Shown here one piece after another: positions 2,947 to 18,425 of a stretch of DNA of 24,000 nt. The stretch covers positions 1 through 24,000 of the forward strand of contig JBCDJC010000040.1 of the NCBI GenBank assembly GCA_038748225.1, read 5' to 3'. The notes under the pieces are model-generated. The model worked only from the letters and a program-made list of their open reading frames with translations. It searched no databases and had not been told where the DNA came from. The DNA comes from Cyanobacteria bacterium P01_H01_bin.26. Its GTDB lineage: Bacteria > Cyanobacteriota > Cyanobacteriia > Phormidesmidales > Phormidesmidaceae. The stretch's first letter is position 1, and each line of letters begins with the position of its first letter. The translations under genes and the position numbers were made by a program.

Positions 2947-3273
2947 ATGACTCAAAAGAAGAAACTGGCTGAATTTACATTGGCAGATGGGGAGACCACT
3001 TTTTTAGTGGAGGTGCCTGAGCCGATTAATGAAGATGTAGTAGAAGAAGTTTCTGTCTTGGATGAGCCTCTACTCAAGGCTAAGGAATCATTTGAGGCGG
3101 CCTTGGATAAAGTGATTCCAGTGGCGTCTGCGGCCATGGGTAGGTTAAAGAAAGCTTCGGCAGACGAGGTAGAGGTGAAATTTGGCCTAAATCTGAGTGC
3201 GGATGCTGGGGTGATTTTTTCGAGTGTGGGTAGCGAAGTGACATTTGAGATCACGATGAAGTGGGGAAAATAG
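2947..3273 (+). CDS. Small Trypco2-like (trypsin co-occurring, CU044_2847-like) protein
   Basis: 108 aa. C-terminus VEVKFGLNLSADAGVIFSSVGSEVTFEITMKWGK matches my memory of the trypsin-co-occurring domain 2 family. It sits 14 nt upstream of a trypsin-like protease gene. Confidence 0.7.
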   Translation: MTQKKKLAEFTLADGETTFLVEVPEPINEDVVEEVSVLDEPLLKAKESFEAALDKVIPVASAAMGRLKKASADEVEVKFGLNLSADAGVIFSSVGSEVTFEITMKWGK

Positions 3274-3287
3274 GCAGATAGAACTCT

Positions 3288-5117
3288 ATGGCAGACGGTG
3301 GTAGGAGACTAGATCAGGCTTATAAGTGTGCGATCGCACGCATCCACGGCAAAAGTAACAAGGTGATTGGTACTGGCTTTTTGGTGGACGGTGGTGTGAT
3401 TACCTGCGCCCATGTGGTTCGGGATGCGCTACGGCTGGGTCGCGGTCAGACGCCTGCCCAGGGCTCTAAGGTTATGATTAGCTTTCCGTTTTCTGTATCA
3501 AAGCGACCGATATCGGCTGAGGTAAAAATTTATCGATACTACAAAGAAGAAGACCAGCACCGGGAAGACGTAGCAGGACTGATTTTATTGGAGCCTTTGC
3601 CGGAGAGAACCAGCCCTATCCGACGGATTGAAGGTTATGGTCTGGAAAATTCCTTTCGAGTGTATGGATTTCCTGAGAAGCGAGCAGCTGGGCGAGAGGC
3701 GACGGGACGGTTTATGACCGATCTGGCGGACGGTCTAGTGCAGATTATTGGTAAGGATGGGTTTTCGATTCAGGCTGGTTTTAGTGGTTCTGCAATCTGG
3801 GATGAGCAGGTCGCTGCGGTGGTTGGGATGACTGTGGCGGTGGAGACGGAGGAACAGAACTCGGATATTGGATTTATGGTTCCAGCTTTGCCGCTGGTGG
3901 AGGTGCAGCGAAAGTTAGAATGTTTGGTGTTGGAGTATTTGCTAACGGTAGACGACGAGGGGCTGGCGGCGCAGATAAACGCAGCGACTGCCCAAGCCTA
4001 TGGGCTGAGTTGCCCTGATGGCTGGATAGTGCCTGACGGCATTGAATCAAAGTTAATCGGTCTGCAAGATGTGCAACTGGCTGAAAATGAGTATGAGGCC
4101 ATTTACCGATTCGCAGCTTTGCTAACCCAGCCTGAGCTAGGTCTGGAGCAAGACCTACGGGACCGGATTCAACAATGGGTGGAGCCCAAGGTTGAGAATT
4201 TCCAGAATTTATTAGACCAGGTTCAAGCTCAGCTGGCTGATCTATCAGAAAGCCAAGAGACTGATGCAGAGTCTTTATTACTGATTACGGTGAAGCCTGT
4301 TTCTGGAGATGAATATCCGGTACAGGCTCTGTTTATGCCAGATGTAAGTCAGTATCAGCCTGAGTTTGGCATGGGTGGACAACCGGTACAGGCTCCGAAA
4401 GCTAATAAATTTGGCGAGAATGTGACAGCCGACACCTTATCAAGTTTGGTCCGTGCCTGTGTTGCGGAAGTGACCCAGAAGGCCCCTCAGAGCCTGATGA
4501 TTCATCTGATTTTGCCATTGGATTTAATTCATCAGACGTGCGATCGCACCATCATTGAAAAAGCAGCCTATGATTTTCTGCCTGATGTTTGCATCGGCAT
4601 GCAATACCGCTTTGTAGTTCGCATAGCAGAGCGGCTGGAGCCGCAGCTGTGGAATCTCTTTAGTGTGAACTGGCAAAAAAAATGGACAGCACTACAAAAA
4701 CTGGCAGCAGGTAAGGGATGTAAAGTATTTATTCCAGGTGACAGTTTAGACCCTAAGACGGCCTTATTCTCAAAGCTCAACCATACCGATAGTTTGGGCC
4801 TAAAGCTAGCCAGTGTTTGTAACAATGCTTCCTACCGTGACATTTTTGGATCGGTGATTGCTGCGGGGGTACCAGCAGCGATTTGGTTACGGTCGGATGA
4901 GTTTTCCGATGGACTGGTGGCTATGGATGAAATCGACGGTCTACTGACCTGTAAAATTGCTAGGCTACCGCAGGCAATCCAGCAGGCTCGCTCTGATGCT
5001 ATGGCCGAGGCTGAGGATGCTCACATTGGTCATCATCTGTCTTTTTTATGGGATGACCCTACGCTCATTCCACCCAGTGCCCATCCCAATAATCAAATGT
5101 CTCTTGGAATGAAATAA
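3288..5117 (+). CDS. Trypsin-like serine protease fused to a VMAP-type (vWA-MoxR-associated protein) C-terminal region
   Basis: The N-terminal ~200 aa carry candidate catalytic-triad contexts: GTGFLVDGGVITCAHVV (His), EDVAGLILLE (Asp), GFSGSAIWD (Ser). The remaining ~400 aa are non-catalytic and lie immediately (2-nt gap) upstream of a MoxR ATPase gene, as in ternary vWA-MoxR-VMAP systems. Confidence 0.8.
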   Translation: MADGGRRLDQAYKCAIARIHGKSNKVIGTGFLVDGGVITCAHVVRDALRLGRGQTPAQGSKVMISFPFSVSKRPISAEVKIYRYYKEEDQHREDVAGLILLEPLPERTSPIRRIEGYGLENSFRVYGFPEKRAAGREATGRFMTDLADGLVQIIGKDGFSIQAGFSGSAIWDEQVAAVVGMTVAVETEEQNSDIGFMVPALPLVEVQRKLECLVLEYLLTVDDEGLAAQINAATAQAYGLSCPDGWIVPDGIESKLIGLQDVQLAENEYEAIYRFAALLTQPELGLEQDLRDRIQQWVEPKVENFQNLLDQVQAQLADLSESQETDAESLLLITVKPVSGDEYPVQALFMPDVSQYQPEFGMGGQPVQAPKANKFGENVTADTLSSLVRACVAEVTQKAPQSLMIHLILPLDLIHQTCDRTIIEKAAYDFLPDVCIGMQYRFVVRIAERLEPQLWNLFSVNWQKKWTALQKLAAGKGCKVFIPGDSLDPKTALFSKLNHTDSLGLKLASVCNNASYRDIFGSVIAAGVPAAIWLRSDEFSDGLVAMDEIDGLLTCKIARLPQAIQQARSDAMAEAEDAHIGHHLSFLWDDPTLIPPSAHPNNQMSLGMK

Positions 5118-5119
5118 CG

Positions 5120-6154
5120 ATGGCTGAAAAAGCTAACTGGCGAATTTTCCAGGGAAACCGAAAGCCCCAACAGGATGGGGACTATATCACCAAGCATCTG
5201 CCAGATCCGCCGGGATGGCGGCCCTTTGGTGGTGAGCACGCTGACAGTGTGGCCACTCTGAAAAAGCAGCAACGCGGGGCCACGTTTCAGGCAACGGATG
5301 ATGAAATCGATATGGTGAACGCGGCGTTGTATCTGCGGAGACCGTTGTTGATTACAGGCAAACCTGGCACTGGTAAAACGTCTTTGGCCTATGCAGTAGC
5401 CCACGAGCTTAACTTAGGCGAAGTACTATACTGGCCCATCACCACCCGTACTACCCGAAAAGAAGGACTTTATAGCTATGACGCTATTGCCCGTTTGCAA
5501 GATGCGCAGCTGGAGCGAGAAAAAGACATTGGCAGCTACATTACCCTTGGCCCTCTGGGTACCGCTCTGTTGCCAACGGACCACCCAAAGCGGCCACGGG
5601 TTTTATTGATCGATGAGATCGACAAGAGTGATATTGATCTCCCCAACGACCTGCTGCACCTGTTTGAAGATGGAGAGTTTGATATTCCTGAGGTGCTGCG
5701 GATGGCGGAGACACTTAAGGAGTCTGACACCACTGTGAAGATCCGTACAGCCTACAGTGAGCCGGACGAAACTCAGTTTGTAGAAACCCAGACGGGGCGG
5801 TTTCGCTGTGGGGCATTTCCTTTTGTGGTGTTGACCAGCAACGGTGAACGAGACTTTCCACCTGCATTTTTGCGGCGCTGTCTGCGGCTGAATATGGGTG
5901 AGCCAGATCCAGCGCGGCTCAAGAAAATTGTGGAAGCTCATCTAGGTCTGGACCTGGACGATAAGGATAAGGTGGACGCTGCCGAGGAACTGATTAAACA
6001 ATTTTGCCAGCGAGCGAAAAAGGGTGACCTGGCTACAGACCAGCTGCTGAATGCAGTGTATTTTGTGACACGGGAGCGGGTACCGGAGCAAAAAACACGG
6101 GATGCCCTAGTGGCTAAGCTGATGAAGTATCTCTCGAGTACTGAGGATGCATGA
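5120..6154 (+). CDS. MoxR-type AAA+ ATPase
   Basis: Walker A LITGKPGTGKTS, Walker B VLLIDEIDKSD, and downstream PPAFLRRCLRL. The stop overlaps the start of the next gene (ATGA at 6151-6154). Confidence 0.9.
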   Translation: MAEKANWRIFQGNRKPQQDGDYITKHLPDPPGWRPFGGEHADSVATLKKQQRGATFQATDDEIDMVNAALYLRRPLLITGKPGTGKTSLAYAVAHELNLGEVLYWPITTRTTRKEGLYSYDAIARLQDAQLEREKDIGSYITLGPLGTALLPTDHPKRPRVLLIDEIDKSDIDLPNDLLHLFEDGEFDIPEVLRMAETLKESDTTVKIRTAYSEPDETQFVETQTGRFRCGAFPFVVLTSNGERDFPPAFLRRCLRLNMGEPDPARLKKIVEAHLGLDLDDKDKVDAAEELIKQFCQRAKKGDLATDQLLNAVYFVTRERVPEQKTRDALVAKLMKYLSSTEDA

Positions 6155-9100
6155 GGTCTGATCGCCGTCCTGTCAAAGACCCTCAGGGAGTGGATGGATT
6201 TACCACGCTGTTGCGTCAGGCGGGGGTAGACTTTGGTGTGGAGGACCTGGCTGATGCCCTGTGGTTAGCCAAGTTTGTGGATGATCCAGGGGTAGATGAG
6301 GCCATACAGGCTGATGATCCAAATAAAGAGCAAGAAGGTCCCACTGTTCGCGAAGAATATTTAGAGCCTGAGGAAGACCTGGATCAGGATAATACGGCCC
6401 AGCTGAGCTTACCGTCGACTCAGGCAAAATCTCAAGGTGGCGAGAAGCCAGACGGTATCCCGATCAAGGCTCCAGCAGCCCCGGCACTGAGAATACGGCT
6501 AGACCTATCACGGGCGCTGCGACCATTGCGACGTATGGTGGACTCACCAGGTCGATTGATGTTTGATGAAGCGGCCACGGTAGAACAGATTGCCGATCAA
6601 CAGATTTGGTCGCCAGTGATGAAGCCTGCGCCAGAGCGATGGTTAGATGTGGCACTGGTGGTGGAAGAAACTCAAGCACTGTCAGTATGGAAAGAGACCA
6701 TTACCGAAGTGCAAACCCTGCTAGAGCGGCAGGGAGCTTTTCGGCAGGTGACCACCTGGCGACTAAAAGAACAAGGGGGTAAGTTGGCCCTGTTTCAACA
6801 TTGGCGGCGACCAGGTCAGCGACCTCGGCAGGCTAAGGACCTGTGGGATCCGTCTGGGCGGCGGTTGATTTTGTTGTTGAGTGATTGTACGTCAGTGGCC
6901 TGGCACGATGGCTCCATATTGACCTGGCTGCAAACCTGGAGCAAGCGCGCCCCGACTGCCATGATGCAGCTATTGCCCGAGAGGTTGTGGTCTCAGACAG
7001 GGCTGGGAGGGGGAGTGCCAGTGCAGCTAGGGGCCATTGAACCTGGCTGTGTAAATGAGCGACTGATGATGACCTATCGGTTACCAATCTACAAACAGTT
7101 ACTGGCAGGGATAGATACAGCAGACCGTGTGAAGTTACCCGTTGTGACTTTGCAGGCTCAGCCCCTGAAGCAGTGGGCCAAAGTGGTGGCAGGCAGTGGT
7201 GAGAGCTGGGCCACAGGCATGGTGTTTGATGGGGGAGAGAAGAAAAGAGAAGAGATAGTAGATAAAGGCCAAGGGATAGGCAAAATAGAGCCAGCACTAC
7301 GGGTGCAGCGGTTTCGGATGACGGCGTCGTTGATGGCGCAGGAACTGGCGGGGCTGATGTCCGTGGCTCCGGTAAGTCCCCCCATTGTGGATTTAATCCG
7401 GCAGACGCTGTTGCCTAGGGCGGAGCCGGTGCATGTGGCGGAAGTGTATATGGGAGGGCTGATGGAGCCCTCGCAGGCTAATGACCAGAGTGAAGTGACC
7501 TATGACTTTGATGATGAGGTGCGCAAGCTGTTGGCGAATTCAGTACCTCGGTCGGTGTCAAAGCATGTGTTAAATGCGGTGTCGGCTTACATCTCAGAGC
7601 GGTTGAATTTGAATACCCGCAGCTTTGAAGCGTTGCTGAGCGTTGACTTTGGAGATGATGTTGAAGCGGAGGGAATGGTGGTGCCCTTTGCCAGGGTAGC
7701 GGAACAAACCCTAAGGCGGATGGGGCGAGAGTATGCGGCGATCGCAGATCGAATACAGACGCGACCAAAGGTAGCATTACCGTCTGTTGAAGGGGATGCG
7801 AGTAATTGGGTGCCTCTATTACAGACATTCACGTTTAGAGAGGCGATGGTTGTTTTTGAAACTCAGTCAGAAACAACAGTAGAAAGGTCGTTAGAGGTGG
7901 CAGAGCCTGACGATGTAGAAGACGAAATTCAACGCTATGGGTTAACGCCTCGTGAAGCCGAGGTGTGGCGTTTGCGTAGGCAAGGACTTACTCATCAGGA
8001 AATCGCCCAGGAACTAGTTATTACAGCTAATACGGTTAAAAAACATGTCAATAATATTTTGTCTAAACAGCAGCTTGCGAGAGTACAGTCCAATGACGAT
8101 AATAAGCGTTATAGCTTAACTTCCCGTGAAGCAGATGTATGGCAGTTACGTCAGCGGGGAGCGACCTATCAAGAAATCGCTCAAGAACTGTTTATTTCAG
8201 TAAATACAGTCAAAAAACATCTCAAGAGTATTTTGGCTAAACGGCAATTCGTAGAGAAAAAAGAAGAACTAGCTGCTGAAAGTCAGCGATACGGATTTAC
8301 AGAGCGTGAGGCAGCCGTGTGGGAGCTGCATCAGTTTAATCATAACAAAGAGGAAATTGCTAAAGAACTTTACATTACTGTTGATACCGTTAGAAAGCAT
8401 TTAAGGAATATTCAAGCCAAACGTGAACAGGTTGAATCTCTCGGCGAAGATATGCGCTTTGAAAGATTCTCCTTTGAAACTGCTTACATAACTCTTGAGA
8501 AGACTGATGAGCAATCGCCGGAGCTGTTAATCACCTATCAAGAAAGTCATGGGAGGCAGTATATTGAAGGCCTAGGGAAAGACATTGAACTCCCAATGGT
8601 GTTACTTTCTGGTGGAACATTTGAAATGGGCTCGCCGGAGGATGAACAGGGATATGATCCTATGGACGGTCCACAGCATGTGGTTAGGGTACCTTCCTTC
8701 TTTATAGCCAAGTATCCTATTACTCAAGCTCAGTGGTGTGTGATTGCTGCGATGCCGCAGGTGAATCGTGAACTGGAGGCTGACCCGTCACATTTCAAGG
8801 GAGACAATTGCCCTGTTGAGAGTGTGAGCTGGTTTGATGCAGTAGAGTTTTGTGCGCGTCTCTCTAACCATACGGGGCGCGAATATCGCTTACCCACCGA
8901 AGCTGAATGGGAATATGCCTGTCGTGCCGGAACAACAACTCCATTCCATCTTGGTGAGACTATTACGGCAGACCTAGCAAATTATAATGCCACTGAAACT
9001 TTTGGTTCCGGTCCTGAGGGAGAATATCGAGAACAAACAACCGATGTAGCAAGCTTCCCAGCCAACGCCTTTGGCCTTTATGACATGCACGGCAATGTGT

Positions 9101-9348
9101 GGGAATGGTGTTTAGACCACTGGCATGACAACTATGAAGGGGCTCCTACCGACGGTAGTGCTCGGATAGACCCTAGCAAGAGTAACAAAAAAGACTCTGA
9201 CGAGAGCAAAAACCGTGTGCTGCGTGGCGGTTCGTGGTACATCTATCCTGAGGACTGCCGGTCGGCGGCCCGCAACTCCCTTACCCCGGGCGACCGCAGC
9301 AGCTCTAACGGTTTTCGGGTAGTGTGTGGTTCGGCGAGGACATCTTAG
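6151..9348 (+). CDS. vWA-type partner of MoxR. Architecture: SAV_2336-like N-terminal region, vWA-like region, three LuxR/GerE HTH modules, and a C-terminal FGE-sulfatase (CLec-fold) domain bearing DGR VR1
   Basis: N-terminus LLRQAGVDFGVEDLADALWLAKFV. vWA-like strands LDVALVVEETQ and RRLILLLSDCTSVAW. Three ~49-aa repeats with the (Q/K)RY.LT.REA.VW...EIAQEL.I..NTVKKH pattern (7930-8076, 8104-8250, 8284-8427). FGE-sulfatase motifs GGTFEMGSP, RLPTEAEWEYACRAGT, HGNVWEWC, LRGGSW, GFRVV. Confidence 0.8.
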   Translation: MRSDRRPVKDPQGVDGFTTLLRQAGVDFGVEDLADALWLAKFVDDPGVDEAIQADDPNKEQEGPTVREEYLEPEEDLDQDNTAQLSLPSTQAKSQGGEKPDGIPIKAPAAPALRIRLDLSRALRPLRRMVDSPGRLMFDEAATVEQIADQQIWSPVMKPAPERWLDVALVVEETQALSVWKETITEVQTLLERQGAFRQVTTWRLKEQGGKLALFQHWRRPGQRPRQAKDLWDPSGRRLILLLSDCTSVAWHDGSILTWLQTWSKRAPTAMMQLLPERLWSQTGLGGGVPVQLGAIEPGCVNERLMMTYRLPIYKQLLAGIDTADRVKLPVVTLQAQPLKQWAKVVAGSGESWATGMVFDGGEKKREEIVDKGQGIGKIEPALRVQRFRMTASLMAQELAGLMSVAPVSPPIVDLIRQTLLPRAEPVHVAEVYMGGLMEPSQANDQSEVTYDFDDEVRKLLANSVPRSVSKHVLNAVSAYISERLNLNTRSFEALLSVDFGDDVEAEGMVVPFARVAEQTLRRMGREYAAIADRIQTRPKVALPSVEGDASNWVPLLQTFTFREAMVVFETQSETTVERSLEVAEPDDVEDEIQRYGLTPREAEVWRLRRQGLTHQEIAQELVITANTVKKHVNNILSKQQLARVQSNDDNKRYSLTSREADVWQLRQRGATYQEIAQELFISVNTVKKHLKSILAKRQFVEKKEELAAESQRYGFTEREAAVWELHQFNHNKEEIAKELYITVDTVRKHLRNIQAKREQVESLGEDMRFERFSFETAYITLEKTDEQSPELLITYQESHGRQYIEGLGKDIELPMVLLSGGTFEMGSPEDEQGYDPMDGPQHVVRVPSFFIAKYPITQAQWCVIAAMPQVNRELEADPSHFKGDNCPVESVSWFDAVEFCARLSNHTGREYRLPTEAEWEYACRAGTTTPFHLGETITADLANYNATETFGSGPEGEYREQTTDVASFPANAFGLYDMHGNVWEWCLDHWHDNYEGAPTDGSARIDPSKSNKKDSDESKNRVLRGGSWYIYPEDCRSAARNSLTPGDRSSSNGFRVVCGSARTS
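9220..9338 (+). repeat. DGR variable repeat VR1 (last 119 nt before the RTS-stop of the vWA/FGE-sulfatase gene)
   Basis: Aligns without gaps to 10914-11032 and 12018-12136. Apart from one third-position difference from the TR-like copy in codon 22, differences fall only at positions 1-2 of 13 codons. Confidence 0.85.
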
Positions 9349-9473
9349 CCCTTTGCGCTTGTTCACTTTTGCCCTGTTCATATTTTGCATTATTTTTTCT
9401 TTTTATAAAGAAAATGAGCTGAAGTTGCGAGGCTCATGGCATTGTTTGAGAACGTTGGCTAGAGGCTGGGCGT

Positions 9474-9875
9474 ATGAAAAAAGAGTTGCCTATTGTGCAA
9501 AAGACCTACGACCTGCTGAAGTGGTATGTGCCGATTTTGAATAAGCTGCCTCGTGAGCATAAGTTTTTGCTGGGGGACCGAATGATTACAGGGCTATACG
9601 AACTTATGGAAGGACTGGTTTTGGCGCGATACAGCTCAGACAAACTGCCTCGACTCCAGGTGTTAAACAGTCGGTTGGATCTGCTGCGGCATCAGACTCG
9701 TCTGCTGCTGGACTTTGAGCTGATGTCTGTGAAGCGCTATGAGTATGCTGGGCAGTTGCTGAATGACATTGGCCGAGAGCTGGGCGGTTGGATACGACAG
9801 CAGCGGGCAAAGGCAGCATGGAACGCTACGGCAACCTCTGGCCCGATATCATTGCCTTTGAAAATCTGCTGCTAG
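9474..9875 (+). CDS. avd: Avd-like accessory variability determinant (four-helix-bundle, 23S rRNA IVS protein family)
   Basis: YDLLKWYVPILNKLPREHKFLLGDRM and IGRELGGWIRQQ match the four-helix-bundle/Avd pattern. It lies directly upstream of, and overlaps by 58 nt, the RT start. Confidence 0.85.
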   Translation: MKKELPIVQKTYDLLKWYVPILNKLPREHKFLLGDRMITGLYELMEGLVLARYSSDKLPRLQVLNSRLDLLRHQTRLLLDFELMSVKRYEYAGQLLNDIGRELGGWIRQQRAKAAWNATATSGPISLPLKICC

Positions 9876-10881
9876 CGGCCCGTAAAGCCCAGCGAGGCAA
9901 ACGCTATCAGCCCAATGTGCTGCAGTTAACTACCACCTGGAAACAGAACTGCTGGCGCTGCACACCGAGCTGACGACTAAAACTTATGCACCAGGTCCGT
10001 ACTACACCTTCGACATTTATGAACCTCAGCCGCGCCTGATCTCAGCCGCGCCCTACCGGGACCGGGTAGTGCACCATGCCCTATGTGAGCACATCATGCC
10101 GATTTTTGAACGCACTTTCATTGCTGACTCTTATGCCAACCGGCTGGGCTATGGTGTCCACCGCGCCCTGCGGCGGTTTATTGGCTTTGCACGGTCCAGC
10201 CGCTACGTGCTACAGTGCGACATCCGAAAATACTTCCCCAGCATTGATCATGAAATTCTAAAAACCAGGCTACGGCGGAAGCTTAAGTGTCCTGATACTC
10301 TCTGGCTAATCGATACCATCATTGACCATAGTAATGAGCAAATTCCGGTACATGAGCTTTTTCCAGGGGATGACCTACTAACGATGCTAGAGCGGCGACG
10401 GGGGTTGCCCATTGGTAATCTGACCAGTCAGTTTTTTGCCAATGTTTATCTGAATGGCCTGGACCATTTTGTCAAAGAGCAGCTGCGGGTGAGAAAGTAC
10501 GTCCGTTATGTGGATGACTTTTCGCTCTTTAGCGATGACCGTGCCTTTTTGGCCGATGCTCGCCTGGCCATAGAAGACTTTCTTGCAGATATTCGCCTTA
10601 AGATTCACCCGGTAAAAAGTCAGCTGTTTGAAACCCGTTATGGAGCTAACTTTCTGGGATTTCGTATACTGCCCGACCGCATTCGTGTGCGTAAAGAAAA
10701 CCTGCGCAGGGGCAAACGACGATTACGACAGCTGCAGGCCGATTATGCCAACGGTAGGCTAAGCCTGGCGGACCTGGATCGTTCGATACAGAGCTGGTTG
10801 GCCCACCTGAACCATGGCGATACCTGGCAGTTGCGTAAACAGATCTTTGCTGACCTTGTGTTTACCCGCTATTGTGGATAG
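9818..10881 (+). CDS. DGR-type reverse transcriptase interrupted by an apparent 1-nt frameshift near 9926-9928 (possible pseudogene or sequencing error)
   Basis: N-terminus [36 protein letters not shown] lies in one frame (9818-9925). It continues as [53 protein letters not shown] in the adjacent frame, which is open from 9886. DGR hallmark [16 protein letters not shown] and catalytic YVDD are both present. Confidence 0.9.
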
Positions 10882-10913
10882 GCAAGGCAGTAAAGGCGGG
10901 GCAGGCACCCCGA

Positions 10914-11032
10914 CTGCGTGGCGGTTCGTGGAACAACAATCCTGAGAACTGCCGGTCGGCGATCCGCGGCAACTCTTCTCCGGGCGACCGCTACTTCGAT
11001 CTCGGTTTTCGGGTAGTGTGTGGTTCGGCGAG
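10914..11032 (+). repeat. RT-proximal template-repeat (TR)-like copy of the 119-bp repeat; chimeric or atypical
   Basis: Starts 32 nt after the RT stop. Hot codons 7, 8, 9 and 12 are AAC AAC AAT AAC, as expected for a TR. Codons 17-30 carry non-adenine differences from both VRs. The 3' flank diverges from the shared VR flank immediately after GGCGAG. Confidence 0.65.
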
Positions 11033-11234
11033 CACTCTTCACGAGGTGAGAACTGATGGATGGGAATCTATTGGGAGGGCGTCAGAAGAGTCCAGACCTG
11101 TTCCGGTGATGCTGGTGACAGCATCCGAATATAAAATCGGGTTGGGCAAGCCTGGTAAGCTTAGCTGAACGGTTACCCAACCCACCCAATTCGTTTTTTG
11201 GAAGCGCCCCAAAACGGGAGCCTCTGCGGATACT

Positions 11235-12146
11235 ATGGCAGCACCACCCGAAACTAAACCACAGCTAGTCGTTCGCTATCGAGACCGTACAGCTCAGTTT
11301 TTTACCGAAGATGATCTAGCGCTAACAGCGGAGCAGACAGCTCTAGAAATGGTGCTTATTCCTGAGGGGGAATTTATGATGGGCTCCCCTCAAGATGAGC
11401 AAGGGCGGGATTTATATGGTGAAGTGCAAGACGACTACAAAGGTGTTGATGTAGAAGGCCCTCAGCACCTGGTGAGGGTGCCTTCCTTCTTTATTGGTAA
11501 ATACCCGGTAACCCAGGCCCAATGGCGGGCAGTGGCCGCTCTACCCCAGATAGAGCAGGAGCTTGAGCCAAACCCGTCCAGCTTTAAGGGAGACAATCGC
11601 CCGGTAGAGCAAGTCAGCTGGCACGATGCGATGGAGTTCTGCGCGCGGCTACAGAAGCATACAGGGAAGCCCTATCGTTTACCTAGCGAAGCTGAATGGG
11701 AATATGCCTGTCGGGCAGGCACGACTACGCCATTCCACTTTGGCACATCGATCACAACAGATTTAGCCAATTATTCTGGAACCGATTATGAATACGGAGG
11801 TAGAACCTTTTCAGGGGCCTATGGCAATGGTCCTCATGGTGTTTATCGAGAAGAAACTACAGATGTGGGAAGTTTTGCGATCGCAAATGCCTTTGGTCTC
11901 TATGACATGCACGGCAACGTCTGGGAATGGTGTTTAGACCACTGGCACAAAACCTATGAAGAAGCTCCTAAAGATGGTCGCGCATGGATATCCTCTGGCG
12001 AGAGTGAATTGCGCGTACTGCGTGGCGGTTCGTGGTACGGCAATCCTGAGTTCTGCCGGTCGGCGTTCCGCGACGACTATACCCCGGGCGACCGCAGCGA
12101 CAATAGCGGTTTTCGGGTAGTGTGTGGTTCGGCGAGGACATCTTAG
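11235..12146 (+). CDS. Free-standing FGE-sulfatase (CLec-fold) domain protein; second DGR target carrying VR2
   Basis: 303 aa. A close paralog of the C-terminal ~290 aa of the 6151-9348 product (GPQHLVRVPSFFIGKYPVTQAQW, RLPSEAEWEYACRAGTTTPFH, HGNVWEWCLDHWH, LRGGSW...GFRVVCGSARTS). Confidence 0.9.
   Translation: MAAPPETKPQLVVRYRDRTAQFFTEDDLALTAEQTALEMVLIPEGEFMMGSPQDEQGRDLYGEVQDDYKGVDVEGPQHLVRVPSFFIGKYPVTQAQWRAVAALPQIEQELEPNPSSFKGDNRPVEQVSWHDAMEFCARLQKHTGKPYRLPSEAEWEYACRAGTTTPFHFGTSITTDLANYSGTDYEYGGRTFSGAYGNGPHGVYREETTDVGSFAIANAFGLYDMHGNVWEWCLDHWHKTYEEAPKDGRAWISSGESELRVLRGGSWYGNPEFCRSAFRDDYTPGDRSDNSGFRVVCGSARTS
12018..12136 (+). repeat. DGR variable repeat VR2
   Basis: Gap-free alignment with VR1 shows 17 differences, all at codon positions 1-2 of 10 codons. 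The following 42 nt are also 37/42 identical to the VR1 flank. Confidence 0.85.
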
Positions 12147-12291
12147 CCCTTTGCACTTGCTCTCTTGTGCCCTCTTCACCCATAATATTTTTATGCCCTC
12201 AAAAAATAAAAACATAAGCTAACCTGACGAGATTAGTGCGGTATTAGCAGTGCTTTGTCCGTTACTATTTATCAGCGCTAGCCTACCCCAT

Positions 12292-12738
12292 TTACCAAGG
12301 CAACCACTTTCGCGTTTGCTTCGAAGTCTGCTCAACAGACGCCAAAATTCGACTATTCACCTCATCCTGAGATTCTCCACCAATCGTCCCAATCTGCCGA
12401 TCCAACTCATTGGCCGCCAACGACTCATTCACCATATAAGCCTCCTGGGCAGGCTGGGGTAACGTATCCCGCCGACCTTTTTTGCCGCCGGTCTCCCGAT
12501 ACAGGTCATTCACCGTGCAGCCAAACAGCTCTTTCGTCTGAGTCACAGCGGCCTGTTCATATATATCGCCTGTACCGCCATTCTCCTTAATCGACTTATT
12601 AAACCGCCGATTTACCAGCGCTCCATCTACACGCCTACGCGGCGGAATAAGCGCCTGGGAGTTTCCGCTCAACTCTAATTGGGAGGCAGTCTCTTCCTGG
12701 TTGGGAGCCTCGTTCTTCCACCAATTCAAAAAAGCCAT
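12292..12738 (-). CDS. Hypothetical protein (may be the C-terminal part of a frameshifted larger gene)
   Basis: 148-aa ORF. It overlaps the upstream ORF by 104 nt. No family recognised with confidence. Confidence 0.5.
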   Translation of the reverse strand: MAFLNWWKNEAPNQEETASQLELSGNSQALIPPRRRVDGALVNRRFNKSIKENGGTGDIYEQAAVTQTKELFGCTVNDLYRETGGKKGRRDTLPQPAQEAYMVNESLAANELDRQIGTIGGESQDEVNSRILASVEQTSKQTRKWLPW

Positions 12739-13186
12739 GGGCTTCGTTCTGTTCCTGGGGTGTAAATTCTAAAAGTTGTTCCAAACCGGTTTTGATCAGC
12801 TCTAGACCATCGGGATACATCAAAAAGGCATCCAGAATCTCGTGCCGATACTCATAGTCCCAACGGTCTGGGGTGAAGTTAAAACTGTTTAACACCAGCA
12901 TGTAGGCATCTAAACAGCTTTCGTAGCTGGCCTGGGCTGAGAAGTGAGCCAATGCCTTAATCCAGGTGACCTTATAGCGACGGTCCCCAAACTGTTTGAC
13001 ATCTTGAACGTAGTTTTGGGGCTGCGTCACCACACCACTGGCCTCGTTAAACCGGGTCCAGGCGTTCCAAACTCGTTTTTTTAGCTCGGGCAGCTTCATT
13101 GTGACGTCAGTTGGCTTTGGCTCTAGGATACCGCTAGTTTTGGGATTGCCATAGCGGTTTGAGAATAATTGTTTAACATTACTCAT
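12635..13186 (-). CDS. Hypothetical protein
   Basis: 183-aa ORF. Its start overlaps the stop of the DUF3368 gene by 8 nt, so they probably share an operon. No family recognised. Confidence 0.5.
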   Translation of the reverse strand: MSNVKQLFSNRYGNPKTSGILEPKPTDVTMKLPELKKRVWNAWTRFNEASGVVTQPQNYVQDVKQFGDRRYKVTWIKALAHFSAQASYESCLDAYMLVLNSFNFTPDRWDYEYRHEILDAFLMYPDGLELIKTGLEQLLEFTPQEQNEAHGFFELVEERGSQPGRDCLPIRVERKLPGAYSAA

Positions 13187-13664
13187 CAGCTTGCTGTTTG
13201 AGCAACTGGACTAAACTCTCAGAAAGCCATAGGCCAGCATTTTGGAGGGCTTGAATGGGTTCTGAAACAGATGAAATAATGCCCCTGCGTTTGGCAAGTA
13301 CGATTATCCCACCTGTTCCCAGAGTGGGGATTTTGAGGCTCACAGCACAGCGACGAGCGGCAGCGTCATCGAGGAGAGCGGTGTAATCAGAGTGGGTCAG
13401 GGCATAGCTAATGACTTCTGACTCACCGGCTCCGAGATCCCAGGCCGATACTTTTGGGTCGGTAGTGATGGTTGCCAGTCGGTTGGCCCAATTAGCTTGA
13501 GGTAAGCTTTGGGCTGCAATGTCCTCTTTGCAAGCGGTTACTTCAAACCACACGGCAGGCGGGACGTTTACCTGGCCGAATAGCTGAGGCAATAAATCAG
13601 CGAGCTGGCTTTTGTAGAGGGTAATCAGAGGCGATGCATTGATGATGACGTGTTTAATCGGCAT
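13179..13664 (-). CDS. DUF3368-family PIN-like nuclease (putative toxin)
   Basis: VIINASPLITLYKSQLADLLPQLFGQVNVPPAVWFEV, DLGAGESEVISYAL and GTGGIIVLAKRRGII match the DUF3368/PIN pattern. Paired with the UPF0175 gene upstream. Confidence 0.8.
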   Translation of the reverse strand: MPIKHVIINASPLITLYKSQLADLLPQLFGQVNVPPAVWFEVTACKEDIAAQSLPQANWANRLATITTDPKVSAWDLGAGESEVISYALTHSDYTALLDDAAARRCAVSLKIPTLGTGGIIVLAKRRGIISSVSEPIQALQNAGLWLSESLVQLLKQQADE

Positions 13665-13908
13665 TACTGAGTTCTTTGATCAAGTCAGCTTCGGTGTATT
13701 GGAAGGGGGATACCTGGTAGCGGGAAAGTGCCTGAATGAAGTCAGCACGGGTAAGCCCTGCGATTTCGGCAGCTTTTCCTTGGGAAACTTGTTCCAGTTC
13801 GTACCATTTGACAGCGGCGGCGATGCGCATTTCTTGGGCAAATTCCTCAGGGGTTTTGCGTAGGGCTGAGAAAGCAGTATCAGGGAGGTTGAGGGTAATG
13901 CTGGTCAT
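13654..13908 (-). CDS. UPF0175-family putative antitoxin
   Basis: 84 aa. FAQEMRIAAAVKWYELEQVSQGKAAEIAGLTRADFIQALSRYQVSPF is typical of UPF0175. 11-nt overlap with the DUF3368 gene. Confidence 0.8.
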   Translation of the reverse strand: MTSITLNLPDTAFSALRKTPEEFAQEMRIAAAVKWYELEQVSQGKAAEIAGLTRADFIQALSRYQVSPFQYTEADLIKELSNAD

Positions 13909-14048
13909 GGGAATTAGTTTGCGGGGTGTGGGTCTATGCTAACGGACCTAACCCTAAGCTTTTAAGTCTTTGTTAGGAGTGGTATTTATGGCCTGTTGCA
14001 GTTTGGGGTGAGTGATCGCAAATTTCTCCTGGAGCAGTGAATTTGGGC

Positions 14049-14621
14049 TCACGGTTGGCCCCCTTCCATGCGGCGCTGTTTTAGATGACCGTAGGTGTCC
14101 AGCTCGGCCTGGATTTCTAGCTTGTAGCGCATAATGCCCCGGCGTTGACCGGTGGCTTTAAATGAGGCCAACTCTGCGTCTGAGAAGTCAGCTTCGGTAA
14201 CGGCTAGCTGATCGACAAAGTTTTCCAGGTCGGCCAGCTCGGCGGCGATGGACTGCTGCATTATGCCGTTTTGGGTTTGGCGGAGGGCCAGGGCACTACT
14301 AACGCTATCGGGCATGAGCTCCCCTTCAATTACTCCGGCATTGCTCCATTCGTGGGCATAGCGGGCCTTGGTATTGGCGACCCATTGGGTACGGTCAGCA
14401 TGCCTGACTCGACTAAATTCATCAAACAGTGTCCGTGCCAGCTCGGTATAGGTGGAGCCTTGTTTTAGCAGCGGTTCAGGGGCCACCTGCACAATCCATT
14501 GAAACCAGCGATTGCGGATGGTGGCATCGCTTACCCCCAGTTGTTCGCCTAGCTGTACGGCTGTGTATGAGCCCTGTTTTGTTGCCGTTCGATCAACGGA
14601 CAAATTAGGTATATCATTCAT
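14049..14621 (-). CDS. Hypothetical HTH-containing protein
   Basis: ORF with the probable HTH YTAVQLGEQLGVSDATIRNRW. I chose the ATG at 14619-14621 (MNDIPNL), which is preceded by AAGGA, over the upstream GTG. Confidence 0.6.
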   Translation of the reverse strand: MNDIPNLSVDRTATKQGSYTAVQLGEQLGVSDATIRNRWFQWIVQVAPEPLLKQGSTYTELARTLFDEFSRVRHADRTQWVANTKARYAHEWSNAGVIEGELMPDSVSSALALRQTQNGIMQQSIAAELADLENFVDQLAVTEADFSDAELASFKATGQRRGIMRYKLEIQAELDTYGHLKQRRMEGGQP

Positions 14622-14801
14622 GGCGTAATCCTTGTATTTAAAGGGTTCTAGCACCGTTCACCCGCTGTTCGTGGCACGTTCAGCAGATGCTCGAATATGT
14701 ACAGTACAAGTGTACGGATAAGTTCAGGATAATTCAATAGCTGTATTGCAAAAACTTTGGTTCTAGGTAGCTGGTGGGGTAGTGAACGAGAAACCGGACA
14801 A

Positions 14802-15338
14802 ATGAGAAAACAAGAGACAGATTTCCCGGTTTCACAGCTGATGGAGCGCTATGGTCTGGTGCGATCGCAGGTCTACACCCGCATTAATGCGCTCAAAGTA
14901 CAAAATCCTGAGCTGGCTCCATTTAGAGCAGGGGTACGTTCCTATGTCAGTGAAACGGTACTGGCCTGTCTTGATGAAGTCCATCGGCTGATTAATGAGG
15001 AAGGGCTGACCACTGGGGAAGCGGCTAATCTTGTGGCGGGTAGCTTAGACCGGTCGGCAGCGGACAGCACCGAACAAGAAGATGATATGTCCGGTGTGGC
15101 CTCTCCCCAGGAGGCTCCCTTGATGGCGCTGCGGCGAGTGTTGCAGGCAGAACCCCTGGCCCGTTATGACCTGTTGGATAAGCTCGCAGAGCGGGGATGG
15201 CGATTGCCTACCCGTGAGTTGGCCCTGTTGTTAGGGATGGAAGAACTGACGAGGGAAGCGTTTGAATGCTATGGCTATCGGTTTACCCGAGGGGATGAGG
15301 GTGACCTGGAGATTTCCTGGCGGGTGGAGAAACTTTAG
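14802..15338 (+). CDS. Hypothetical HTH-containing protein
   Basis: ORF read from the first ATG (MRKQETDFPVSQLMERYGLVRSQVYTRINAL, HTH-like). Divergent from 14049-14621. Confidence 0.55.
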   Translation: MRKQETDFPVSQLMERYGLVRSQVYTRINALKVQNPELAPFRAGVRSYVSETVLACLDEVHRLINEEGLTTGEAANLVAGSLDRSAADSTEQEDDMSGVASPQEAPLMALRRVLQAEPLARYDLLDKLAERGWRLPTRELALLLGMEELTREAFECYGYRFTRGDEGDLEISWRVEKL

Positions 15339-15545
15339 GAGGCTATTTGAATAGCTGGCTATCTAGATAGTTAGATGCTTAAGATGTTCTGCTAGCTGAG
15401 CGGAGCCAAAGCTACACCCTACCAGCGCCCCGTTCGACTCTGCTCAGGGGACGCTTATTCCCTAAGGTGATAGCTTTCAAAGGTCATGGCTATCTAAACA
15501 GCCAGATAGTCAGCTATTTAGATATTCAGACAGCTGACTAACCAG
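15339..15545. promoter_or_regulatory. Candidate partition site (parS/parC-like palindromic iterons) upstream of parA
   Basis: GGCTATTTGAATAGC (15340-15354). GGCTATCTAGATAGTT (15357-15372), containing the 12-bp perfect palindrome CTATCTAGATAG at 15359-15370. GGCTATCTAAACAGCCAGATAGTCAGCTATTTAGATA (15488-15524). Confidence 0.45.
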
Positions 15546-15591
15546 CGATGGAATGTCGGTGTAGGCTAGCTGCCAGGCTACTGGTTTTGCT

Positions 15592-16227
15592 ATGAGAATC
15601 GCCATTGTCAGCTTAAAGGGCGGGGTGAGTAAATCGACGCTGTGTGTGAATATTGGGGCGGCGCTGTCAAAGCTGGGCCGTTCGGTGGTGGTGGTGGATG
15701 CGGACCCCCAGGGTTCGATTAATGATTGGGCTACGATTCGCGATGAGGTGTCGAGACCGCCGTTTACGGTGCTGGCGGCGGCCAGGAAAACGCTGAATCG
15801 AGATATTGATGCGTTGCAGGGCAGCCATGATGATTGTTTGATTGATACGCCAGGGCGGGCGGAGGCGATTACGTTGGCTGCGATCTCAGCGGCGGATTTG
15901 GTGTTAATCCCCATCAGTCCATCGTCCTATGACCTGTGGGCTGCTGAGCAAACTTTAGAACGGATGGACCCGATTCGAGCGATCTACACTGACATTAAGA
16001 TTGCCTATGTGGTGAGTAAAGCGGTGGTGGGGTCTTCGTTGGATCGGGAGTTGCGCCAGGTGATTAAGGGGATGGAAGGTGACTTGCTAAAAACGGTGGT
16101 GCATCAGCGGGTGGCGTTTCAGCGCTGTGCCGATGGGGCCACTATCTACGAACTGAAGGATGAAAAGGCCCAGCGAGAGGTGACTAATCTGACTAAGGAA
16201 ATTCTGAAACTGATGGGGGTTGGCTAA
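15592..16227 (+). CDS. parA: ParA-family partition ATPase (small, type Ib-like)
   Basis: Deviant Walker A MRIAIVSLKGGVSKST, then VVVVDADPQGS and CLIDTPG. The stop overlaps the downstream start (TAATG at 16225-16229; a single shared base, 16227). Confidence 0.9.
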   Translation: MRIAIVSLKGGVSKSTLCVNIGAALSKLGRSVVVVDADPQGSINDWATIRDEVSRPPFTVLAAARKTLNRDIDALQGSHDDCLIDTPGRAEAITLAAISAADLVLIPISPSSYDLWAAEQTLERMDPIRAIYTDIKIAYVVSKAVVGSSLDRELRQVIKGMEGDLLKTVVHQRVAFQRCADGATIYELKDEKAQREVTNLTKEILKLMGVG

Positions 16228-16514
16228 TGCCGCAACCGAGACCCAAACGGGATGCTAAGGCGATTGAGCAGTTGATCAATGCGGCCTCAGACGATGGGGC
16301 GGATTTAGGTCCGAGGGTACCGGTGTCGAAAGGGGTGGGTAAGAACAAACGCCCGGATTATCAGAAGCTGTTGGTTTATATTCCGGTGGATCTGCACAGG
16401 GCGCTGAAGCGGGAGGCATTTGATAGTGATGGGGATGTGGATATGAGTGATATCATCGCTGAGCTTTTGGCGGAACGGTATCAGGTGAATTTGGATCGGC
16501 TGATATCTAGATAG
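16227..16514 (+). CDS. Small ParG-like ribbon-helix-helix centromere-binding protein (ParB functional analogue)
   Basis: 95 aa, directly coupled to parA. C-terminus LLVYIPVDLHRALKREAFDSDGDVDMSDIIAELLAERY has an RHH layout. Confidence 0.65.
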   Translation: MPQPRPKRDAKAIEQLINAASDDGADLGPRVPVSKGVGKNKRPDYQKLLVYIPVDLHRALKREAFDSDGDVDMSDIIAELLAERYQVNLDRLISR

Positions 16515-16556
16515 CTAGACAGTTGGATATCTGGCTATTTGGATAGTTGGCTAAGC
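16501..16556. repeat. Second cluster of the par-associated iteron family
   Basis: TGATATCTAGATAGCT (palindrome TATCTAGATA at 16504-16513) and GGCTATTTGGATAGTT (16532-16547). The latter is 13/15 (over its first 15 nt) and 14/16 identical to the copies at 15340 and 15357. Confidence 0.4.
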
Positions 16557-17141: not shown

Positions 17142-18425
17142 GTGGACAAACGGATTAAGCGTACGCTTCGGAAACTATGGCGAGATCGATCGCTGATTAG
17201 CATTGGTGGTCTATTAGTTTTTGGATTTTCTGCCTTACAGCTACAAAGTCTTTTTAAGAGCCGTTCTGTATATCCTTCATGGGTTTTGGACTATTCTTAT
17301 TCAGTTGAGATACTGGTGCATGAGAATGGATCTGAAGAAGAACTAAACAATGCTATCCAAGAGATTTACAAAATCTCACAAGAACGCAACTTACAACGCA
17401 CTCGGATAGTTTTTGAAAAATTAGAGTGGGCTCGGGCTCAGGGGCTGACTTTGGATCTGGCTTTGGATCTGGCTCTGGTTCAGGATTTGGGTCAGGCTCG
17501 GGATCTGGCTCGGGATCTGGCTCGGGATCTGGCTCGTGTTCTGGTTCAGACTTGGGATCGGAATGGGGTTTGGGCTTGGACTCTGGCTCTGGATCAGGAG
17601 CGGGATCAGGCTCGGGCTTTGGATCTGGCTCTGGCTCAGAATCAGGCTCTAGCTCTGGCTCTGGCTCAGGATCTGGCTCTAGCTCGGGTTCAGGCTCAGA
17701 CTAGGGATCAGGATTGGGCTGTGGCTCAGGTTCAGGCTCTAGCTTTATCTCGGGCTCTGGCTCAGGATTTGGCTCAGGATTTGGCTCAGGATTTGGCTCT
17801 GGCTCAGGATTTGGCTCTGGCTCAGGATCATGATCAGGCTCAGGATTTGGCTCAGGATTTAGCTCAGGATTTGGCTTGGGCCAAGGCTCAGAATGTGCTT
17901 CAGGATTTGGCTGTGGCTCAGGATCAGGCTCTGGCTCAGGATTTGGCTCGAGTATCTGACCTGGCTGACGAATTGGTGAAGCTCTTGAATCAGGCTAACA
18001 ACACTCTACTCGTATTCGTCATAGCAACAGAGTTAGAAGAAACTCATGGGTTCACACTACAACATGGAAACACCTTGACAACTCTCTTGAGCCGTGAGCC
18101 TAATCGTGTCCGTACCTTAATGCAGTCAGGAATTTTATTGGGTGCATCAACCATAGTACTGTTCGGTTTGTTAGTGACACTTACCAGGCTCAAAAGAGTG
18201 CCTAACCTACCACGTACCGCCAATCTTATCGCCTTTCTTCCAGAAGAATATGTTGCGGAGCTGGGATACTTACAACGCCGCTTAAGGAAAACAAATAAGT
18301 CTCCCTGGCAAATTCGACGACGGCTGATGCACGAATTTGTCTTTCTACTCTGGGTGCATTACATCCAAGTACAGCTAGATAATCTGTTTTTAGGTTCCAA
18401 CCAAGATCACACTATTGACGACTAA
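17142..18425 (+). CDS. Membrane-anchored protein with a long (A/L)(Q/R)DLA-type low-complexity helical repeat region; PadR-coupled
   Basis: GTG start 1 nt after the PadR stop. Predicted TM segments [17 protein letters not shown] and [18 protein letters not shown]. About 180 aa of DLALDLA / [13 protein letters not shown] / [13 protein letters not shown] repeats. Confidence 0.7.
17428..17970 (+). repeat. In-frame degenerate tandem repeat (6/12/18-nt periodicity) inside the 17142-18425 CDS
   Basis: Includes three perfect tandem 12-mers CTCAGGATTTGG (17761-17796), further copies at 17803, 17839 and 17863 (one-mismatch variant at 17851), and interspersed CTCTGG units. Confidence 0.85.

Follow-up and report, generated by a model that had tools for sequence, protein, structure and literature searches.

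In natural diversity-generating retroelements (DGRs), the DNA of the template repeat (TR), from which one or more variable repeats (VRs) are rewritten, is described as staying unaltered (PMC3240598, PMC10907252). How, then, does a DGR come to carry a template that has itself lost adenines at the codons it diversifies? This question is raised by a 24-kb stretch of DNA (24,000 nucleotides, hereafter the window) from contig JBCDJC010000040.1 of Cyanobacteria bacterium P01_H01_bin.26, in which three copies of a 119-nucleotide (nt) repeat belong to a DGR of a cyanobacterial clade, chromosomal or plasmid-borne. We consider it rather likely that the template of this DGR was overwritten by adenine-mutagenised information, with a cDNA integrated into the TR, and that the element is now frozen. 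The element seems to have damaged itself and then stopped.

The three copies, VR1 at positions 9220-9338, a middle copy at 10914-11032 that corresponds to the TR, and VR2 at 12018-12136, were compared by alignment with MAFFT. The resulting alignment has 119 columns and no gaps, with 95 invariant and 24 variable columns, and exact blocks of 18, 13, 12 and 30 nt are common to all three copies. When the repeat is read in the frame CTG CGT GGC GGT TCG TGG, the variable columns are restricted to codons 7, 8, 9, 12, 17, 19, 20, 21, 22, 27, 28, 29 and 30, and they occupy 13 first positions, 10 second positions and a single third position, which is a C/T difference in codon 22. The probability that at least 23 of 24 variable columns would miss third codon positions by chance is 7.7e-4. 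This frame is the true reading frame of both target open reading frames (ORFs), 6151-9348 and 11235-12146, each of which stops 10 nt past its copy, and the 13 variable codons are high-entropy positions among 67 homologues (3.0 bits, against 1.1 bits elsewhere). VR1 and VR2 differ from each other at 17 nt in 10 codons. The middle copy is also variable at the same 13 codons, with 22 nt that differ from VR1 and 18 nt that differ from VR2, and it carries a base other than adenine at most of the sites where VR1 or VR2 departs from it. A repeat search recovered the same three-copy family, with no fourth copy or other TR in the 24-kb window. These results bear out the initial annotation of this DNA, which had described a gap-free 119-bp alignment of the three intervals with all differences in 13 codons and, save for the one C/T in codon 22, at their first two positions; its count of 17 nt in 10 codons between VR1 and VR2 and its list of variable codons were exact, and the alignment check that it proposed, once run, revealed substitutions that are not evenly spread over codon positions.

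The surrounding sequence, with every component on the plus strand, identifies the element as a DGR. An intact avd gene (9474-9875) matches Pfam bAvd (5.8e-20) and the NCBIfam equivalog NF033474 DivGenRetAVD (137.4 bits, cutoff 80), and it adjoins the gene for a DGR-type reverse transcriptase (RT; 9818-10881, with an ATG at 9818), which matches Pfam RVT_1 (1.7e-17), contains the motifs IGNLTSQ and YVDD, and has 186 relatives located in DGR cassettes. The TR starts 33 nt past the RT stop. Both VRs end their targets, 23 of the 24 variable columns lie at codon positions 1-2, and the ancestral codons reconstructed below are AAC or AAT. A 29-nt GC-containing constant segment is identical in all three copies, and past its end the sequences diverge, the VRs continuing with GACATCTTAGCCC... 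and the TR with CACTCTTCACGAG..., a candidate pair of an initiation of mutagenic homing (IMH) site and its template counterpart (IMH*). The two VR flanks are alike at 84% identity up to 9380 and 12178, and the TR copy diverges directly past position 119; the segments common to the VRs and not to the TR, 9339-9380 (which holds the stop codon of the first target) and 12137-12178, are candidate IMH extensions that would serve target recognition. No GC-rich inverted repeat or hairpin was found after the IMH at either VR flank (DNA folding z-scores of -0.47 and -0.07, and no terminator-like site); such a hairpin is present in only 34% of DGRs (PMC5758913). In every tested respect save one, the element is an ordinary member of its clade.

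The exception is the adenine bias of the mismatches between template and variable repeats. Only 9 of 22 mismatches between the TR and VR1, and 8 of 18 between the TR and VR2, are located at TR adenines (0.41-0.44). The RT family provided the comparison for these values: from the 186 relatives found, the best 80 loci were fetched, a TR-VR pair was found in 68 of them, and 62 TRs were lined up by codon. The TR lies just downstream of the RT stop in the 68 loci, as does the middle copy of the window, and TR adenines account for a median 0.93 of the TR-VR mismatches, such that the window occupies the extreme low tail of the distribution. Inspection of the template itself localizes the anomaly. The window TR reads AAC AAC AAT .. 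AAC in codons 7-12 and GGC AAC TCT TCT .. TAC TTC GAT CTC in codons 19-30, and it is the only TR among the 62 that has neither AAC at codon 19 nor the AAC-AAC-AAY block before GGT TTT. Five other loci with low bias (L021, L036, L075, L023 and L053) were considered as similar cases and rejected; in these, non-A mismatches occur at scattered sites, many of which fall within the constant 3' segment, and no TR has lost its AAY blocks.

What did this template look like before it changed? A sister locus (L002), from the metagenome-assembled genome 'Cyanobacteria bacterium P01_A01_bin.15', is syntenic with window positions 3822-16534 at 89.7% nt identity, and its RT is uninterrupted and 97% identical to that of the window. 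The sister TR is pristine, reading AAC AAC AAT .. AAC .. ATC CGC AAC AAC AAT ACC CCG GAC GAC CGC AAC AAC AAC AAC, and the mismatches of its two VRs are all at adenine sites (7/7 and 17/17). The flanks of the window TR are the same as those of the sister TR, and for this reason the middle copy must be the orthologous TR. Across the 479 nt from 10783 to 11261, window and sister differ at 14 positions only, all of them within 10968-11002 (repeat positions 55-89, codons 19-30), with no difference in the 185 nt before this tract or the 259 nt after it, and at 12 of these 14 positions the sister has an adenine (P = 3.6e-7). Among five closely related locus pairs, only the window and its sister have a variable part whose divergence (18.7%) is far above that of the flanks (1.6% and 0%). 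A metagenome scan with the TR 3' junction returned one contig only (L082), which belongs to the sister lineage and has the same pristine TR and the same VR1. The idea that the middle copy is a remnant third VR was rejected, given that its homology ends at the repeat boundary, 33 nt past the RT stop, that it is orthologous to the sister TR, and that the RNA typical of the family follows it.

Two repeat positions separate the lineages in a different way: every window copy has G at position 71 and T at position 87, where every sister copy has A and C, a pattern that marks ordinary template divergence copied into the VRs. An ancestral template, TR0, was inferred as the sister TR corrected at these two positions. 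Compared with TR0, VR1 has 14 differences, of which 13 are at adenines and the remaining one is T50C, and VR2 has 12, every one of them at an adenine. The present TR differs from TR0 at 12 positions, 11 of them A-to-N changes and the other C66T, and its adenine count has fallen from 28 to 17. The comparison points firmly to both VRs having been written from a template with AAY at the 13 codons. The adenine bias that is missing when the present TR is used (9/22 and 8/18) is found when the ancestral TR is used (13/14 and 12/12); its absence is attributed to secondary corruption of the TR, with no sign of a different kind of element. The initial annotation had read the repeats as exactly the footprint expected from mutagenesis at the adenines of AAY codons in two targets of a DGR with TvpA-like, C-type lectin (CLec) fold variable proteins. 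The identity of the element stands, given the Avd equivalog, the DGR-type RT and the location of the VRs at the 3' ends of two FGE-sulfatase proteins, and so does the diversification of two targets at adenines of AAY codons. The footprint itself holds against the inferred ancestral template but fails against the present one, and by handling the three-way variation as variation of the VRs the annotation overlooked a corrupted donor copy, with 11 adenines lost in codons 19-30, next to a frameshifted RT.

The RT lesion is a 1-nt deletion, TTT to TT at 9926-9927, in codon 37 (VLQ-F-NYHLE). The upstream frame reaches a stop ~15 codons past the deletion. In three-frame translation NVLQ is read in one frame and NYHLETELL...YVDD...TRYCG* is found in the next, and no start codon reopens the downstream frame before 10069, which is already past a conserved segment. 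This deletion is the only indel relative to the sister in 9457-11240. Downstream of the frameshift, 63 of the 77 differences from the sister RT are at third codon positions, with a synonymous divergence of 0.36 and a ratio of nonsynonymous to synonymous divergence (dN/dS) of 0.044. The lesion would be recent, because the rest of the gene bears this signature of strong purifying selection, and the RT is probably now non-functional. A Logan contig of 2273 nt (L001, SRR22824304) is identical to the window over 9327-11599, including both the deletion and the corrupted TR.

Were the template adenines lost in a burst or by drift, and at what point relative to the last homing events? The changes in the TR are polar, in that 0 of 10 adenines were changed at repeat positions 19-49 and 11 of 16 were changed at positions 55-89 (Fisher p=7e-4); the VRs were changed on both sides (5/10 and 8/16 in VR1, 6/10 and 6/16 in VR2). 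The TR spectrum, comprised of 6 A>T, 3 A>G and 2 A>C, resembles the VR spectrum, and the changes in the tract number 11 at A and 1 at non-A. Neutral decay is an unsatisfactory description of this pattern because, C66T apart, the 91 non-adenine sites and the flanks were not hit. Since G71 and T87 are common to all window copies, template and VRs must have been in register before the burst. Thereafter the two parted. In the count made for the order of events, none of the 11 new TR bases has been taken up by either VR, and neither VR has been rewritten since; at the 11 changed sites the tract agrees with VR1 in no case and with VR2 in 2, and at 14 of 23 non-A mismatches the VR base is the ancestral A. 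Gradual change within an active element is likewise disfavored, because new TR bases would have been copied into the VRs and none were. The order of events suggested by these counts is that, following the state in register, the 3' part of the template would have undergone a single adenine-specific event or a small number of them, with no homing afterwards.

How could an adenine-specific process reach the template itself? Judging by the family and the paradigm of Bordetella phage BPP-1, RT and Avd would bind a transcript that spans both the TR and the structured RNA downstream of it, and reverse transcription would proceed from the TR 3' end with random misincorporation opposite adenines (background for the TR transcript, RT-Avd and cDNA priming in PMC3240598 and PMC12875486). 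In regular operation the cDNA would replace the homologous VR at the 3' ends of the two FGE-type CLec proteins, with a 3' junction fixed in the constant segment and a 5' junction that is variable and dependent on homology, in line with descriptions of homing in which the 5' boundary varies and is set by homology and the 3' end is fixed at the IMH (PMC5758913, PMC3240598). In the event proposed here, mutagenised cDNA would have integrated into the TR DNA instead of a VR. Integration would have been anchored at the 3' constant end, as in normal homing, and would have crossed back to the resident sequence between codons 17 and 19, so erasing 11 of the 28 template adenines within the 3' two-thirds of the mutable part. 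The element would then have ceased working, by the RT frameshift or otherwise, and its two VRs would have been left frozen. The rationale for favoring cDNA integration into the TR is that a 3'-anchored tract ending between codons 17 and 19 fits partial homing with the TR as recipient. Self-mutagenesis of the TR, which 'preferentially eliminat[es] dA from the TR', has been documented in synthetic DGR systems (bioRxiv 10.64898/2026.07.21.739853). The more specific statement, that the window records natural self-homing of a template, in which the adenine mutagenesis of a DGR turned on its own TR although the IMH* had not changed, leaving a single 3'-anchored tract that the comparison of two sister genomes has captured, is one that we regard as about evenly balanced between true and false.

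Several points weigh against this interpretation. Support for the TR allele and for the frameshift comes from two assemblies, possibly of the same sample, and the ancestral state was inferred from one sister genome and the family consensus. Both C66T in the TR tract and T50C in VR1 are non-adenine changes. The TR 3' flank, which contains the IMH*, is identical to that of the sister, and no sequence change accounts for the use of the TR as a recipient; the event would therefore have been an off-target or recombination-mediated accident and not a case of IMH* becoming IMH. Doulatov is reported to have described, in 2004, an experiment in which IMH* was exchanged for IMH. The view taken here covers 24 kb of the genome, and the remainder may contain a third VR or another intact DGR that acts in trans. 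Finally, the sequence outcome is the same for direct integration of a cDNA and for gene conversion by a VR with the same codons.

The last of these points is the core of the alternative that survives best, namely that homologous gene conversion of the RecA type, from a VR to the TR, gave the corrupted template in place of cDNA integration. The exact blocks shared by the copies (18, 13, 12 and 30 nt) could support such recombination, the converted tract is bounded by blocks of this kind, and the final pattern, with changes at A sites only and in one tract, would be identical. We nevertheless consider gene conversion unlikely, although it deserves to be kept in view, given that the tract matches VR1 at none and VR2 at only two of the 11 changed sites. 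Any donor rewritten at a later time would carry the new TR bases, which leaves a third VR, as yet unseen, as the source, and neither the window nor the sister locus (13 kb) contains a third copy. When VRs with the new residues of the TR were sought at the protein level, the search returned 7 candidates, all of them TR-type pseudo-ORFs, a result that is uninformative and should not be read as a negative.

A further alternative is that the middle copy is not the working template at all, but a decayed duplicate, and that the VRs were written in trans from an intact TR and RT elsewhere. DGR components that act in trans and degenerate loci are both documented (PMC10907252), the window is limited to 24 kb, and the local RT is frameshifted. 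This explanation is improbable in light of the orthology between the local cassette and the complete, clean cassette of the sister, whose VRs match the TR of that same sister cassette at all non-A sites, and of the lineage markers G71 and T87, which the window copies have in common with the local TR. Moreover, it would leave the adenine-specific, polar burst in the local TR still in need of explanation.

Could the anomaly instead have arisen during assembly, the TR being a chimera of TR flanks and reads from a VR variant, and the frameshift a sequencing error? Assembly of 119-nt repeats is prone to error, the DNA comes from a metagenome-assembled genome, and the Logan contig breaks within VR1 at 9327. 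However, that second assembly (SRR22824304) is identical over 9327-11599, through both the TR and the deletion, and a chimera would need one switch in the 13-nt shared block and a second in the 30-nt block. In its 5' part the copy still has the TR-specific AAC AAC AAT..AAC, the tract matches neither VR, and the loss of one T from TTT is atypical as a short-read error. Taken together, these observations make an artefact very improbable.

Mismatches that are not A-to-N have been put down to RT infidelity or unrelated mutation (PMC5758913). In a further alternative, the template would be intact and the RT a low-fidelity, 'non-canonical' enzyme that mutagenises non-adenine bases as well. In a survey of DGRs, 23% had non-A-to-N differences, up to 11 of them in one target, and the cyanobacterial lineage had them more often (PMC5758913). 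We find this proposal hardly credible for the window: the 14 of 23 non-A mismatches at which the VR base is the ancestral A compare with an expectation of about one-third, the mismatches are confined to codons at which the sister and 61 other family TRs have AAY, and the sister element, with an RT 97% identical, has 7 of 7 and 17 of 17 mismatches at adenines. Ordinary divergence, whether of paralogous segments under diversifying selection or by neutral drift of the TR after the death of the element, can be set aside as having next to no likelihood, for although selection for amino-acid change acts at codon positions 1-2 and the RT has diverged appreciably from that of the sister at synonymous sites (0.36), the middle copy is in a non-coding context 33 nt past the RT stop, there are 0 changes in 444 flanking nt and 12 of 14 changes at adenines where drift would strike the 91 of 119 non-A sites and the flanks, and drift would not spare all 10 adenines on the 5' side.

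Smaller template changes were observed elsewhere in the family. Single A-to-N variants are present at conserved AAY codons in several TRs (L033, L075, L070, L010, L014, L017, L036 and others); for example, TR codon 7 is found as ATC, TAC, GGC, GAC or GCC, and L033 has GAC TAC at codons 19-20, where its VR follows the TR. Because family TRs carry A-to-N variants and the L033 VR follows its template, small-scale adenine editing of templates may recur in the clade.

The DNA around the tract is remarkable for its conservation. The 479-nt stretch 10783-11261, which runs from the 33 final RT codons through the RT-TR linker and the TR to ~230 nt further downstream, is otherwise 100% identical to the sister, as against a synonymous divergence of 0.36 in the rest of the RT. 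This near-identity would reflect either very strong RNA-level constraint that extends into the RT 3' end or a recent exchange of the segment between lineages.

Directly 3' of the TR lies an intact structured non-coding RNA (11032-11183, plus strand, ~150 nt), which is 100% identical to the sister and has counterparts in the same place across family loci (L003-L081). In an alignment of 36 family loci, 42 predicted pairs in 7 helices are paired in 94.6% of cells, compared with 29-44% when the partners are slid; compensatory changes are found in 32 pairs, and 0 of 500 shuffles reach the observed values. No Rfam family matches anywhere in the window, and none matches the post-TR RNA or the sequence around the TR even at E<=1. 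In BPP-1, a 'spacer' RNA recruits RT-Avd and primes the synthesis of cDNA, and the RNA found here is its probable counterpart. A separate observation from a related system concerns Nodularia spumigena CCY9414, which has ~70 genomic copies of a transcribed DGR non-coding RNA element located downstream of a related RT (PMC3610870). These copies hint that RNAs of the clade can insert outside VRs, which bears on how a cDNA could reach a TR.

The proteins diversified by the element belong to a recognizable setting. Target 1 (6151-9348, 1065 aa) carries VR1 at its 3' end and combines a SAV_2336-type N-terminal domain (NCBIfam NF041121 SAV_2336_NTERM, 414.7 bits), LuxR/GerE helix-turn-helix (HTH) repeats (GerE, 6.2e-26) and a C-terminal FGE-sulfatase (CLec) domain (PF03781, 7e-56, residues 816-1058). 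Target 2 (11235-12146, 303 aa) carries VR2 and consists of the FGE-sulfatase/CLec domain only (PF03781, 3.1e-56). Three conflict-system genes lie directly upstream of target 1 in the same orientation, all on the plus strand: the first gene of this operon encodes a Trypco1 adaptor domain (2947-3273; PF19493, E 2.9e-23), the second a trypsin-like peptidase fused to VMAP-M1 and VMAP-C, a vWA-MoxR-associated protein and putative effector (3288-5117; VMAP-C 1.5e-28, VMAP-M1 3.4e-14, Trypsin_2 5.3e-5), and the third a MoxR-like AAA ATPase (5120-6154; AAA_5 2.3e-10, with a weak match to bpMoxR) whose stop overlaps the start of target 1. The ATPase, a VMAP protein with an effector domain and an adaptor domain are thus all syntenic with target 1, as in a MoxR/VMAP conflict system. 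No vWA domain was found in target 1, residues 1-600 of which have no Pfam match and whose N-terminus is named by NCBIfam as SAV_2336_NTERM; many such targets carry an N-terminal extension in place of vWA (Dore et al., PMC10907252). The same setting, including one long multi-domain target and one short CLec-only target, has been described for cyanobacterial DGRs (PMC10907252). By analogy, target 1 would be the putative sensor of the Trypco1 / trypsin-VMAP / MoxR conflict system and target 2 a short CLec-only paralogue.

Sequence matches of target 2 to PDB entries include PvdO (5HHA, 7.5e-35) and TvpA (2Y3C, 1e-22), with the VR motifs aligned. An AlphaFold2 model of target 2 built with 67 homologues (pLDDT 81.7, pTM 0.84) gave Foldseek probability 1.00 to 5HHA, 2Y3C and FGEs, with TM-scores of 0.66/0.71 and a root-mean-square deviation of 3.3 A for TvpA 2Y3C; the fold is that of FGE-sulfatase/CLec proteins, with the VR as the C-terminal part. 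The 13 variable residues of target 2 (268-270, 273, 278, 280-283 and 288-291) may form a solvent-exposed ligand-binding face, for which their alignment with the TvpA VR and their high entropy among the 67 homologues are indirect support. Exact-sequence look-ups of the target 1 and target 2 proteins found no record; target 2 is 100% identical to a protein of Cyanobacteria bacterium P01_H01_bin.26, and its protein cluster has a single member. Relative to the sister, dN/dS is 0.044 for the MoxR-like ATPase and 0.023 for avd. Divergence from the sister is mosaic across the region: the trypsin-VMAP gene is only 59-67% identical in nt at 4022-5000 (dS 1.46, dN 0.28) compared with 92-98% for neighboring genes, and the start of the target 1 FGE domain (8622-8822) is ~69% identical. 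This mosaic suggests recombination or fast evolution of effector and sensor.

The closest kin of the element are DGRs of the cyanobacterial clade named Lineage 4 by Wu et al. 2018 (PMC5758913) and clade 5E by Dore et al. 2024 (PMC10907252), also treated by Vallota-Eastman et al. 2020 (PMC7517822). Its RT shares 64-76% identity with those of 79 loci from Nodosilinea, Nostoc, Scytonema, Microcystis and others, the best 80 loci being almost all cyanobacterial, a grouping by identity and cassette architecture. The order target-avd-RT-TR-(target), the pairing of a long multi-domain with a short CLec-only FGE-sulfatase target, the linked MoxR ATPase, Trypco1 and trypsin-VMAP genes, and the covarying post-TR RNA are all typical of this clade. 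Unlike the clade, the window has a TR without 11 adenines in codons 19-30, an adenine bias of 0.41-0.44 in place of ~0.93, and a frameshifted RT.

With the BPP-1 DGR (Mtd/avd/TR/brt), the element has in common adenine-specific transfer from TR to VR, a CLec-fold protein whose gene ends in the VR, an Avd, a GC-rich 3' segment that is constant between TR and VR and gives way to divergence of IMH and IMH*, and a structured RNA 3' of the TR (PMC3240598, PMC12875486). It differs in that the TR is downstream of the RT and not between avd and brt, that there are two targets, and that no GC-rich hairpin follows the VRs. Moreover, the BPP-1 TR 'remains unchanged' (PMC3240598), whereas the window TR has changed. 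In comparison with TvpA of Treponema denticola (2Y3C, E 1e-22), the motifs RVLRGGSW...C...PG...GFR align and the variable codons are at homologous positions; identity is only ~24%, however, the window proteins are nearer to PvdO (5HHA) in sequence, and target 1 adds the HTH and SAV_2336-N domains. TR variants between Treponema strains are known.

Two other comparisons concern the loss of function. In engineered DGRec-type systems (bioRxiv 10.64898/2026.07.21.739853, 10.64898/2026.06.12.731847), the cDNA recombines with the TR, adenines are progressively lost and mutagenic capacity falls, much as proposed here. Those systems, however, use a heterologous single-strand annealing protein in E. coli without IMH-based targeting, whereas the event in the window is natural and left one polar tract in a native cassette with an unchanged IMH*. 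The degenerate DGR loci of Thiohalocapsa PB-PSB1 (PMC10907252) are natural as well, with pseudogenised or missing RT or TR beside conflict-system targets, but decay there proceeded by insertion of transposons and miniature inverted-repeat transposable elements and by replacement, in contrast to the point frameshift and adenine-specific template corruption observed here. In the papers covered by our limited literature search, which does not amount to proof of absence, the only systems described as losing adenines through TR self-mutagenesis are engineered ones, where the effect is a nuisance.

Other features of the window lie outside the DGR. Putative toxin-antitoxin pairs flank the DGR region, both on the minus strand, at 347-1241 (DUF433 with a DUF5615/Mut7-C-like ORF) and at 13179-13908 (UPF0175 with DUF3368). 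A ParA-type ATPase and a small downstream ORF (15592-16514) are flanked by three 31-nt repeats (ATTTGAATAGCTGGCTATCTAGATAGTTAGA-like) at 15345-15375, 16489-16519 and 16521-16551. This region looks like a partition cassette, and the contig may for this reason be a plasmid or an integrated element. A truncated ORF of the phage-integrase family is present at 18911-19414 on the minus strand. On the plus strand, an ORF of 427 aa (17142-18425) contains in its middle third a degenerate tandem array of 12/24/30-nt units (17452-17966) that encodes DLAQ/DLAR/ALAQ repeats; it has no Pfam match, and hydrophobic segments are located on both sides of the repeats. No tRNAs were found in the window.

As a two-target FGE-type DGR beside a MoxR/VMAP system, this element is a routine member of its clade, and its value lies in the state in which it has been caught. 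If the overwriting of its template is true, the one-way rule of transfer from TR to VR would be leaky in nature, and the discrimination between donor and recipient can fail. Self-erasure of template adenines would then be a route by which DGRs lose their capacity and die. Standard detectors that need a high adenine bias would miss or misread such loci, and some of the 'non-A-to-N' mismatches recorded in surveys may reflect a template that has changed.

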